Below, piece after piece: positions 43,991 through 46,067 of a stretch of DNA of 64,000 bases. The translations under genes and the position numbers were made by a program. Position 1 is the stretch's first letter; each line of letters starts with the position of its first letter. The notes beneath the pieces are model-generated. The model saw only the letters and a list, made by a program, of their open reading frames with translations. It ran no database searches and had not been told where the DNA came from. The stretch lies in NCBI GenBank assembly GCA_934617425.1, contig CAKTUD010000002.1, forward strand, positions 10,011 through 74,010, in the 5' to 3' direction. The stretch is from an uncultured Eggerthellaceae bacterium (lineage in GTDB: Bacteria > Actinomycetota > Coriobacteriia > Coriobacteriales > Eggerthellaceae).

Positions 43991-43995
43991 CAAAC

Positions 43996-44034
43996 GAAAG
44001 CGGGCCCGCATCGTCACGTCGCGGGCCCGCTTTC
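43996..44034. terminator. Bidirectional terminator between convergent addA and the hcp-like gene
   Basis: GAAA-GCGGGCCCGC-(11-nt loop)-GCGGGCCCGC-TTTC. Confidence 0.8.
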
Positions 44035-44055
44035 GATATATGATGGAAGCAAACG

Positions 44056-45063
44056 TTATTGCAAAAATTCCGCCAAATCGCTTTCGGCTTCGGTGGCGAA
44101 TTTCAAGCCGTATATTTGTTTGAACAGATTCACGATGCTATCGGTCAGGTATTCTGCCGGCACGGGGCCAAGTGAAACGTTCTTGATGCCAATCCAGACC
44201 AAGGTGAGGGCGGCGGCTACGCCTTCGCAATCGTCTCTCGAGATCAGATAACTTAGCGGCAGGTCATTGACGCTTGCGTTGAGCTTGCTGGCAAGGGCGA
44301 CGGAAATCTGCACTGCGGTGTAGAGTGCTTCTTTGCCGCCTAGATTGATTACGCGTTCTCGGTCGTCGATCTTGCCGAGGTCGAGCGACTCGAGGCGTTT
44401 GGCGATTTCTCCGAAGGCGACGAAAATGCTGTCGGCAGGTGCTGCTTTTGCGAGCGTCTCGTAATAGCCGAAAGCTGCATCGTCTTGACAGGCGCCACCG
44501 ACGAAGAAGACACGGCTTATCGTCTTGCTCTGCAAGCCTGCGGCAAGCGCAGATGCGATTTTGCTCGCAGGGTCGTCGGCGCCGGATTTCGTCCCCAGTG
44601 CTTCGAGAACGAACCAATTGACCTCGCCGACGCTGTTGGAAAGCTCAAGCAACTGTACCAGCGTGCTTTCGGGGTTGCCGATGGTGAAAAGACCCGCACG
44701 GAAAAATGCATTTACTTCAGGGTTGGAGAGCTCTTGATTTCGAGCCAGAAGCGTGGGGCCGGCGGCGTCGCGCAGGCCATCGAGGATCATCAGCTTGAGG
44801 CCGCGTTCGTTGTCGTTTCCGGCGAGGCTGCCCATGTCGAAATCGGCGATGGCGGCGCTTTCCGATTCTTTTGCCAGGCGCGCGTTTTCTTCATGGGCGC
44901 GCTCGGCGAAGGCAAGCAGCGTGGCGTCGGCGGCGTTGCCGGCGCTTGCGGCAGTGCCGCCGATAACGATGTCGTCAGTCTCGTCCGACACGAATTTCGT
45001 TGCGCGGCCGGCTGTATCGGAAAGGGCGATAAGCGCGCCTGTAAGCGCATCGCGTGCGTTCAT
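44056..45063 (-). CDS. Truncated hybrid-cluster-protein (Hcp/prismane)-like protein lacking the N-terminal Cys motif, the middle domain and most hybrid-cluster ligands
   Basis: The C-terminal part ...VINLGGKEALYTAVQISVALASKLNASVNDLPLSYLISRDDCEGVAAALTLVWIGIKNVSLGPVPAEYLT... is collinear with the Hcp C-terminus (see finding). SD AGGAA lies upstream. Confidence 0.7.
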   Translation of the reverse strand: MNARDALTGALIALSDTAGRATKFVSDETDDIVIGGTAASAGNAADATLLAFAERAHEENARLAKESESAAIADFDMGSLAGNDNERGLKLMILDGLRDAAGPTLLARNQELSNPEVNAFFRAGLFTIGNPESTLVQLLELSNSVGEVNWFVLEALGTKSGADDPASKIASALAAGLQSKTISRVFFVGGACQDDAAFGYYETLAKAAPADSIFVAFGEIAKRLESLDLGKIDDRERVINLGGKEALYTAVQISVALASKLNASVNDLPLSYLISRDDCEGVAAALTLVWIGIKNVSLGPVPAEYLTDSIVNLFKQIYGLKFATEAESDLAEFLQ

Positions 45064-45257
45064 ATGTATTCCTAACTATCGGGATGCTTGGCAGTGCATA
45101 GCTGCGGCGCTTGGCGCGGCGGCTATTTTCGACGAAGCAATTGTAACAGCGCCCGCGTGCCCGAGCTCCATGAAAAGACAAGCGTTTCGTCGGCATTACG
45201 GTTTGGCAACTAACGCGGCGCTGCCGTATCACGCGATTCGTTCGTTGAGTTGGCGCG

Positions 45258-45301
45258 CAGGAAAGCGAACCGCCCCGAGTTTGGCAATCGGGGCGGTTCG
45301 C
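45258..45301 (-). terminator. Hairpin terminator downstream of the Fe-S protein gene
   Basis: 14-bp stem GCGAACCGCCCCGA/TCGGGGCGGTTCGC, with TTTCC following on the minus strand. Confidence 0.65.
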
Positions 45302-45311
45302 TAGGCTTTTT

Positions 45312-46067
45312 CTATTCGAGGATGCGTCCGTCGAGAGAAAACGTGGTCACTTGCCAAGGAATGAATTTCCCGCTTATCTGCAGGGCGCGCTTGGCCATCT
45401 GCTCCAAGCCGCCGCAACAGGGTACTTCCATACGTGTGATGGTGACGCTCTTGATGTCGTTTTGGGCGATTATCGCTGCGAGCTTCTCGCTGTAATCGGT
45501 TCCATCGAGTTTGGGGCACCCGATGAGACATTTTTTGCCACGGACGAAATCGTGGTGGAAATCGCCGTAGGAATAAGCGCAGCAATCGGCGGCGATGAGG
45601 AGATTCGCGCCGTCGAAATAAGGGGCTTGGATAGGTGCGAGCTTGATTTGCACCGGCCAATTCTGCAGTTCGGATGGCACGTTTCGCATTGCGACACCGC
45701 CGCTGACCTCGTTTGCCAGCGGGTTTGCGGCGATGCTGTCGTGATGCATCTCGCGTGAGCGCGAGCCGGGGCAGCCGCCCTCGTGGTGATGGTGGACGGG
45801 CGCTTCTGCTTGGGGAAGCTCAACCTTTCTCTGCTGTTTGCTGGCCAAAACGGCGGCTTCGTCGTAGGCCTTGGCCTCGCGTTCGATGAAGGATATGGCG
45901 TCGGCAGGGCAGGCCGGCAGGCAATCGCCCAGGCCATCGCAGAAATCGTCACGCAGGAGCTTCGCCTTGCCGCCCACCATTCCGATGGCTCCCTCGTGGC
46001 AAGCTTGCGCGCAAAGGCCGCAGCCGGTGCATTTCTCTTCGTCGATATGAATTATCTTTCTGAGCAT
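45312..46067 (-). CDS. Iron-sulfur protein: N-terminal 2x[4Fe-4S] ferredoxin-type domain, His-run linker and Cys-pair-rich C-terminal domain
   Basis: Contains CTGCGLCAQAC, CDGLGDCLPACP, VHHHHEGGCPGS, ADCCAYSY, CLIGCPKLDG and VPCCGGL. The ATG at 46067 is preceded by GAGGGAG. The longer track ORF (to 46370) runs into the divergent gene. Confidence 0.8.
   Translation of the reverse strand: MLRKIIHIDEEKCTGCGLCAQACHEGAIGMVGGKAKLLRDDFCDGLGDCLPACPADAISFIEREAKAYDEAAVLASKQQRKVELPQAEAPVHHHHEGGCPGSRSREMHHDSIAANPLANEVSGGVAMRNVPSELQNWPVQIKLAPIQAPYFDGANLLIAADCCAYSYGDFHHDFVRGKKCLIGCPKLDGTDYSEKLAAIIAQNDIKSVTITRMEVPCCGGLEQMAKRALQISGKFIPWQVTTFSLDGRILE

Follow-up and report, generated by a model that had tools for sequence, protein, structure and literature searches.

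Can a protein that has lost the cluster-binding parts found in hybrid cluster protein (Hcp) still be a maintained gene product, and if so, what might it do? This question is raised by a 335-residue protein, here referred to as mini-Hcp, encoded in a 64,000-nucleotide stretch of DNA (the window; GenBank contig CAKTUD010000002.1, positions 10,011 to 74,010) from an uncultured Eggerthellaceae bacterium. The genome is a 1.7-Mb, 98.6%-complete metagenome-assembled genome of a gut member of the Coriobacteriia, and its relatives are labelled uncultured Eggerthellaceae or Coriobacteriaceae. As discussed below, we favor the reading, with a probability of roughly 0.75, that mini-Hcp is a cofactor-free pseudoenzyme derived from Hcp with a non-redox role, most likely the binding of a partner protein. 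The gene and its two parts are:

44056 to 45063, minus strand: the mini-hcp coding sequence, 335 amino acids (aa) plus stop codon, identified as an open reading frame (ORF) with a Pfam Prismane match (E 5e-19) and a ratio of non-synonymous to synonymous substitution rates (dN/dS, or omega) of 0.10-0.22.
44578 to 45063, minus strand: an N-terminal all-helical domain, aa 1-162, which corresponds to Hcp domain 1 minus the 32-residue cubane-binding N-terminus.
44059 to 44577, minus strand: a C-terminal alpha/beta domain, aa 163-335, which corresponds to Hcp domain 3 with all four of its cluster ligands substituted.

The frame runs uninterrupted from ATG to TAA on the minus strand, in keeping with the intact 335-aa ORF reported at 44056-45063 in the initial annotation. 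Its C-terminal part matches the Prismane profile (PF03063) over aa 177-330 against profile positions 349-512 of 513, and the score of 68.8 bits, relative to a gathering cut-off of 27, places the protein in the Prismane/CO dehydrogenase superfamily. Solved Hcps align to aa ~170-334 with E values of 1e-20 to 1e-11; in the case of Escherichia coli Hcp (structure 7DE4), residues 394-548 align to aa 180-334 (E 1.2e-20). The motifs NDLPLS and LTLL-GI-N are kept. The N-terminal half, taken alone, matches E. coli Hcp weakly (i-E 44), whereas the match to the 531-aa full-length Hcp of a genome from the same genus (G004) is firm, with 43% identity over aa 2-156 (E 1e-27). The boundaries of this domain are based on the identity to residues 34-190 of the G004 protein, on the helices (H3-160) in an AlphaFold2 (AF2) model and on the low omega of this half (0.04-0.12). 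Hence, the C-terminal ~165 aa match Hcp domain 3 and the N-terminal ~160 aa match the Hcp helical domain. The initial annotation had proposed both correspondences, and both have been borne out: profile searches, structure searches and phylogeny place mini-Hcp inside Hcp and not in an unrelated family, and among the Pfam and NCBIfam profiles none other than Hcp/Prismane matches. The NCBIfam Hcp equivalogs TIGR01703 and NF003658, which cover the same C-terminal part as Pfam Prismane, score at about one third of their cut-offs (116 bits vs 360.8 and 122 vs 367).

What is missing becomes apparent in an alignment of mini-Hcp with five short orthologs and nine full-length Hcps (alignment A1). The start of mini-Hcp aligns with position 33 of the G004 Hcp, such that the first 32 residues and the four Cys of the cubane motif are gone, and no relic of this motif is present in any frame of the 248-nt spacer upstream of the ATG. 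A second gap, of net 161 residues, lies between aa 156 and aa 170 and corresponds to the whole of domain 2, with the deletion junction at about aa 157-169. The hybrid cluster is bound by seven ligands, which we take to be the His in GHD, the Glu in THGEM, the Cys in TTNC, the persulfide Cys in GGCDG, the Cys in ACGKY, the Cys in GQCND and the Glu in WYEQK. The first three disappeared together with domain 2. Domain 2 comprises residues 223-368 in MtHCP, and Cys402 and Glu490 have been confirmed as hybrid-cluster ligands (PMC10210160). In domain 3 of mini-Hcp, AFGEI stands in place of ACGKY, GGKEA in place of GQCND and RDDCEG in place of WYEQKA. Moreover, the persulfide-Cys motif GGCDG reads GGACQ, with its Cys moved by one position and not kept in the orthologs. 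Across the clade, GGCDG is replaced by GG[A/G][C/N], ACGKY by [F/Y]G[E/S/T]I, GQCND by G[G/A/S][K/R] and WYEQK by [R/Q][D/H][D/G/C/N]. The absence of the N-terminal Cys motif and of the central domain, and the substitutions at three ligand positions, had all been noted in the initial annotation and hold in A1, which adds the altered persulfide position.

In total, mini-Hcp retains none of the four cubane ligands and none of the seven hybrid-cluster ligands, and the latter count is zero in every one of the five non-redundant mini orthologs. There is no conserved Cys column in the clade (1-4 Cys per protein), and H57 is the sole invariant His. With no conserved Cys and a single conserved His, mini-Hcp should be unable to hold either Fe-S cluster, and a protein unable to hold them would not act as a hydroxylamine or nitric oxide (NO) reductase. 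Judged from these residues, mini-Hcp very probably contains neither cluster and has no catalytic function as an Hcp, and it is predicted to have no hydroxylamine/NO reductase activity. The earlier suggestion of a degenerate protein of Hcp fold that cannot bind the canonical clusters is thus supported.

The two deletions follow domain boundaries exactly, and only for this reason did we consider a split enzyme, in which genes at other loci would supply domain 2 and the cubane module for assembly with mini-Hcp. However, mini-hcp is the only Prismane-family gene in the 1.7-Mb genome according to the Pfam hidden Markov model (HMM) search, so no full-length hcp is found elsewhere in it, and tblastn with domain 2 and the N-terminal 40 aa of the same-genus Hcp as queries returned nothing from this 98.6%-complete assembly. 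The domain-3 ligands are mutated too. Within the sensitivity of the tblastn and HMM searches a split enzyme was rejected, and we consider it barely credible.

Is the remainder then a gene in decay? Pairwise dN/dS of mini-hcp is 0.10-0.15 for unsaturated pairs (synonymous divergence, dS, 0.11-0.15) and 0.16-0.22 for deeper pairs, and the deficit of non-synonymous changes is significant (binomial p 2e-8 to 2e-39). The frame is open across lineages with saturated synonymous sites (dS 0.9-1.5). Omega falls in the range seen for addA, addB and the flavoprotein genes (0.06-0.33), and between the genome of the window (G000) and its relative G005 mini-Hcp is 60% identical, relative to 54-55% for AddA, AddB and the HI0933-like flavoprotein. 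Constraint is stronger in the helical domain (omega 0.04-0.12) than in the C-domain (0.17-0.34). In addition, the G005-type ortholog is represented in public gut metagenome data by more than 200 different intact variants, 337 aa in length. A functionless remnant, that is, a pseudogene that has so far stayed unbroken, would be in line with the loss of catalytic residues and domains, the very long stem branch of the clade (see below), a frameshifted copy in one assembly and the small carrier genomes, which also lack NrfA and all NarG-like molybdoenzymes. This idea is strongly disfavored by the open frame at dS 0.9-1.5, the omega of 0.10-0.22 with p as low as 2e-39, the conserved promoter and Shine-Dalgarno (SD) sequence, a level of identity on par with that of the neighboring proteins and the large number of intact variants. 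We conclude that mini-hcp is a real gene kept by selection, which is almost certain, and the earlier view that it is not a decaying pseudogene stands. A pseudoenzyme is a homolog of an enzyme that lacks the cofactor residues and is under purifying selection; ligand loss and an omega of 0.10-0.22 are what we find here. Recruitment for another role, as put forward in the initial annotation, is therefore the probable reading, given the strong purifying selection.

The sequences flanking the gene suggest how it is expressed. The elements concerned are:

45138 to 45148, minus strand: an extended -10 promoter, TGTTACAATTG, with the hexamer TACAAT at 45140-45145, conserved in five lineages.
45070 to 45073, minus strand: an SD sequence, AGGA, 6 nt 5' of the ATG, of which the AGG/GGA columns are invariant in five orthologs.
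45267 to 45299, minus strand: a terminator-like hairpin 3' of the upstream Fe-S gene, located between that gene and mini-hcp (free energy, dG, -26.5 kcal/mol; z -4.1).
43995 to 44035, strand not assigned: a palindromic hairpin between the convergent addA and mini-hcp, a bidirectional terminator (dG -34.1 kcal/mol; z -4.9).

The promoter motif CTGYTACAATT is invariant in five lineages whose dS is saturated and occurs once in the 64-kb window, where 0.04 occurrences are expected; its position implies a leader of about 70 nt. For both flanking hairpins, 0 of 200 shuffled sequences were as stable. The SD sequence and the terminators on both sides, which had been read from the sequence earlier, are borne out by these data, and the elements point to mini-hcp having its own promoter, SD sequence and terminators as a stand-alone gene. 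RNAalifold gave no consensus structure for the ~70-nt leader, and a riboswitch in the leader was dropped as a candidate since the Rfam matches were all sub-threshold and on the terminator hairpins. No HcpR/CRP/FNR-type palindrome was found within two mismatches upstream of the mini-hcp orthologs and related hcp genes. The region upstream of the full-length hcp in G004 (L016:11268-11600) is AT-rich and carries palindromic TTGCA...TGCAA elements (TTGCACATATTTCAATTGTATGCAA); these are absent upstream of all mini-hcp genes, which have the plain extended -10 promoter instead. Possibly a regulator bound at the TTGCA...TGCAA stretch, and the site disappeared together with catalysis.

Upstream of mini-hcp lies a gene that could be thought of as its partner:

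45312 to 46067, minus strand: a protein of 251 aa that combines a 2x[4Fe-4S] ferredoxin domain with a Cys-rich C-terminal domain (Fer4 families), which is context and not a required part of the system.

The ferredoxin-like frdX is known to be linked to hcp by position, and in the hcp-frdX operon the two are co-transcribed under HcpR/FNR-type control (Rodionov 2005, PMC1274295). A 68%-identical ortholog of the Fe-S gene is situated directly 5' of a full-length hcp in another genus (G017). The Fe-S gene is retained beside mini-hcp in G000 and on a metagenomic contig (P0002), on which the AF_0155 domain was found. Judging from this arrangement, the gene would be the ancestral ferredoxin-like partner of hcp, FrdX-like by position. 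Beside mini-hcp in G001, G002 and G005 it is absent, and there mini-hcp directly faces the HI0933-like flavoprotein gene; at a further locus (P0005) the gene upstream of mini-hcp is a different one. The missing gene in three genomes, the different upstream gene in P0005 and the terminator and separate promoter in the window argue that mini-Hcp acts independently of the Fe-S neighbor. An obligatory pairing of the two was rejected on the grounds that three lineages lack the gene and that a terminator and a promoter of its own separate mini-hcp from it. The suggestion in the initial annotation that mini-Hcp works with the neighboring Fe-S protein is for the same reasons not supported.

The neighbor also bears on the idea that mini-Hcp is still a metalloprotein, with a non-canonical cluster or metal site built from Asp, Glu or His, formed between the two subunits of a homodimer or shared with the upstream Fe-S protein. 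Class III Hcp and carbon monoxide dehydrogenase (CODH) are homodimers (PMC10502027), position 279, adjacent to what was the Glu ligand, is still a Cys in the proteins from G000, P0002 and P0003, and the Fe-S neighbor is retained in G000 and P0002. We nevertheless regard this idea as quite improbable, considering that no Cys column is conserved among the 1-4 Cys in each protein, that just one His is invariant, that the Fe-S neighbor is absent in G001, G002 and G005 and that a terminator lies between the two genes in the window.

How did the short form arise? In the window, mini-hcp is convergent to addB-addA and adjoins two flavoprotein genes, and the arrangement is the same in three genomes of the genus (G001, G002 and G005) and on the P0002 contig from a metagenome. 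In G004, of the same genus, that slot after addB-addA is occupied by a canonical hcp encoding 531 aa, to which mini-Hcp is 43% identical in the helical domain and 33% in domain 3. In a tree built over 304 shared columns the short forms constitute one clade (support 1.0), sister to G004 (0.98) and inside the Hcps of their own family. Descent from Hcp is supported by this nesting and by the positional orthology to the G004 gene. The stem branch of the mini clade measures 1.02 substitutions per site, relative to about 0.1-0.2 for full-length branches. Sampling of the family covered 301 genomes, of which only five, all in one of 64 genera, have the short form. The slot shared with the G004 hcp, the single clade, the long stem and the restriction to one genus point to a single origin in place, which would have involved two in-frame deletions and a burst of substitutions.

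Collectively, these data lead to the following model. The ancestor would have been a class-I-type hybrid cluster protein, of which mini-Hcp is the direct descendant as its positional ortholog. Two stretches would have been lost in frame, namely the 32 N-terminal residues involved in binding the [4Fe-4S] cubane and all of domain 2 (net 161 residues), so that the helical domain now runs straight into the Rossmann-like domain 3. The remaining hybrid-cluster ligands would then all have been replaced during a burst of fast evolution. The suggested order is excision at domain boundaries, the burst of substitution and renewed constraint. In the resulting protein, the likely binding surfaces would be the helical domain, which is very acidic and under strong constraint, and the face uncovered when domain 2 was lost.

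Outside the family, an exhaustive search covering 1.8 billion cluster representatives recovered only one other protein with this architecture, from a termite-gut Gastranaerophilus (P0029, discussed below). The survey of ~330-aa versions thus found them in one genus of 64 in the family plus this single protein. Five further candidates of about 300-340 aa (P0034, P0046, P0071, P0031 and P0052) were rejected as mini-Hcps; in each, a canonical Hcp C-terminus follows an unrelated N-terminus (GyrA-like in P0046). Errors of assembly or gene calling have probably produced these chimeras, unless they are fragments, and such entries could be mistaken for short Hcps.

With respect to the fold, the AF2 model obtained with an alignment that includes full-length Hcps has a predicted local distance difference test score (pLDDT) of 92.9 and a predicted template modelling score (pTM) of 0.91. 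Its best Foldseek matches are the Hcp structures 7DE4, 1GN9 and 8CNR, with template modelling (TM) scores of 0.80-0.85 normalised to the query. Judging from this model, the helical domain and domain 3 seem to be positioned relative to each other as in Hcp, with the domain-2 side open. The mini-Hcp proteins are very acidic (isoelectric point about 4.4, net charge about -20).

Given a protein that presumably has no cofactor, what role could it have? Its Rossmann-like domain 3 might bind a nucleotide or metabolite in the old active-site crevice, making mini-Hcp a neo-functionalised enzyme or sensor. This is the main alternative to partner binding. Glycine-rich loops at the C-terminal edge of the sheet, GGGNG after strand 1 and YG(S/T)IG after strand 2, are kept in four of the five lineages, and a burst followed by constraint fits neofunctionalisation. 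However, the window protein has GGACQ and FGEIAKR in those loops, the C-domain is the less constrained half and only Hcp profiles match, and consequently we consider a new small-molecule-binding or enzymatic function unlikely, albeit worth keeping in mind. We see about even odds that mini-Hcp serves as a non-catalytic binding protein or scaffold and has not acquired a new small-molecule or enzymatic role.

Several observations weigh against partner binding by a cofactor-free pseudoenzyme. The binding role is arrived at by exclusion. Four lineages show moderate conservation of the loops that once formed the active site (GGGNG, YGSIGDR), and this site could have a new ligand instead of being dead; the window protein departs from these loops. 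With an alignment of mini-Hcps only, AF2 gave a pLDDT of 45 and an uninformative model; the confident model hence depends on the full-length Hcp rows, and the domain arrangement is one deduced by homology. Finally, one of nine assemblies of the P0002 cluster has a frameshifted copy, possibly a strain-level disruption, which would indicate dispensability, or a sequencing error. In that assembly mini-hcp appears on one 78.7-kb contig as pieces of 180 aa and 123 aa (P0297 and P0298), with the tail frameshifted after about residue 170.

On balance we favor the cofactor-free pseudoenzyme with a partner. A more tentative extension is that the Hcp scaffold, that is, the helical domain plus domain 3, has a second, cluster-independent moonlighting role in binding or regulation, which the enzyme masks in normal Hcps and which survives here in pure form. 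If true, mini-Hcp would be a natural separation-of-function allele for Hcp physiology.

Could the loss of catalysis be related to a change in metabolism? NrfA and every NarG-like molybdopterin oxidoreductase are absent from the five mini-Hcp genomes (G000, G001, G002, G003 and G005), while G004, with a genome of 2.3 Mb, has NrfA and NarG-like genes, as do three other genomes with full-length Hcp. This pattern suggests a wholesale loss of anaerobic respiration in the mini-Hcp clade with its reduced genomes. However, among 56 relatives without mini-Hcp, 16 have both Hcp and NrfA, 12 Hcp only, 14 NrfA only and 14 neither (odds ratio about 1.3). As Hcp and NrfA are unassociated in these relatives, the proposal that catalysis became dispensable once nitrite respiration was lost was rejected and is kept as a scenario only; the link between mini-Hcp and lost nitrite or anaerobic respiration is circumstantial. 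About a dozen of the best NrfA matches in relatives (e.g., G028:C1:1342131-1343270) carry one or two in-frame stop codons, which may be an artefact of matches that run past gene ends.

The roles debated for Hcp are NO reductase, hydroxylamine reductase, S-nitrosylase and a function in oxidative stress (PMC10210160). The sole public name for mini-Hcp proteins is "hydroxylamine reductase (hybrid-cluster protein)", and this annotation is wrong: mini-Hcp is clearly derived from Hcp yet falls outside a functional Hcp by equivalog score, Cys motif, the three domains and ligands. The name would wrongly credit these human-gut bacteria with nitrosative-stress or nitrogen-cycle capacity. A cluster-free Hcp derivative that is preserved by selection means that part of the Hcp fold is useful without redox chemistry. 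As a natural separation of function, it provides a clean handle on the role of the retained part of Hcp and a tidy example of how a pseudoenzyme emerges. The evolutionary case is clean, in a clade that is narrow and uncultured.

How, then, does mini-Hcp relate to known systems? With class I and II Hcps (Desulfovibrio vulgaris 1E2U, E. coli 7DE4, M. thermolithotrophicus 8CNR and the 531-aa protein of G004) it shares common descent, a homologous helical domain and domain 3. It differs from them in being without the cubane Cys motif, domain 2 and all seven hybrid-cluster ligands, and it is predicted to be unable to perform Hcp redox chemistry. What sets the three recognised classes of Hcp apart is either the cubane motif or a helical domain of reduced length; domain 2 and the ligands are present in all of them (PMC10210160, PMC10502027). 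Class III (M. marburgensis 7E0L; P. furiosus) is likewise a naturally shortened Hcp (PMC10210160, PMC10502027), whose helical domain is reduced while the Cys motif, domain 2 and all ligands are kept (class III-like rows P0014 and P0016 of A1). In this respect mini-Hcp is the opposite of class III: it keeps the segment that class III misses and has lost what class III keeps (TM 0.66).

A further comparison is offered by the shortened or ligand-deficient relatives of nickel-dependent CODH (Ni-CODH), referred to as mini-CooS. These relatives share the Prismane/CODH superfamily with mini-Hcp, in which truncated members without an assigned function have been noted, and belong to a different branch of it (Foldseek TM to CODH about 0.38). 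The term mini-CooS was not found in PMC6344411. A form of Hcp that has no domain 2, or no clusters, did not turn up in our search of the literature.

Another parallel is the protein P0029 (322 aa) from Candidatus Gastranaerophilus sp. ex Termes propinquus (GCA_002933735.1), which has the mini-Hcp architecture: it starts right after the cubane motif and has no domain 2. It is encoded at L030:5001-5969, is annotated "hydroxylamine reductase" and is a singleton in the databases. The gene is intact, with an upstream spacer of only 108 bp, and the protein nests among full-length Hcps of the Gastranaerophilales type on its own long branch (0.79). P0029 is 25% identical to mini-Hcp and, in contrast to it, keeps three of the four domain-3 ligands (FACNEH, EQCGC, LYEQKA). 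Its placement and sequence argue for an independent, apparently younger origin of the same two-deletion design. The same reduction of Hcp would thereby have taken place at least twice independently, once in gut Eggerthellaceae and once in a termite-gut Gastranaerophilus.

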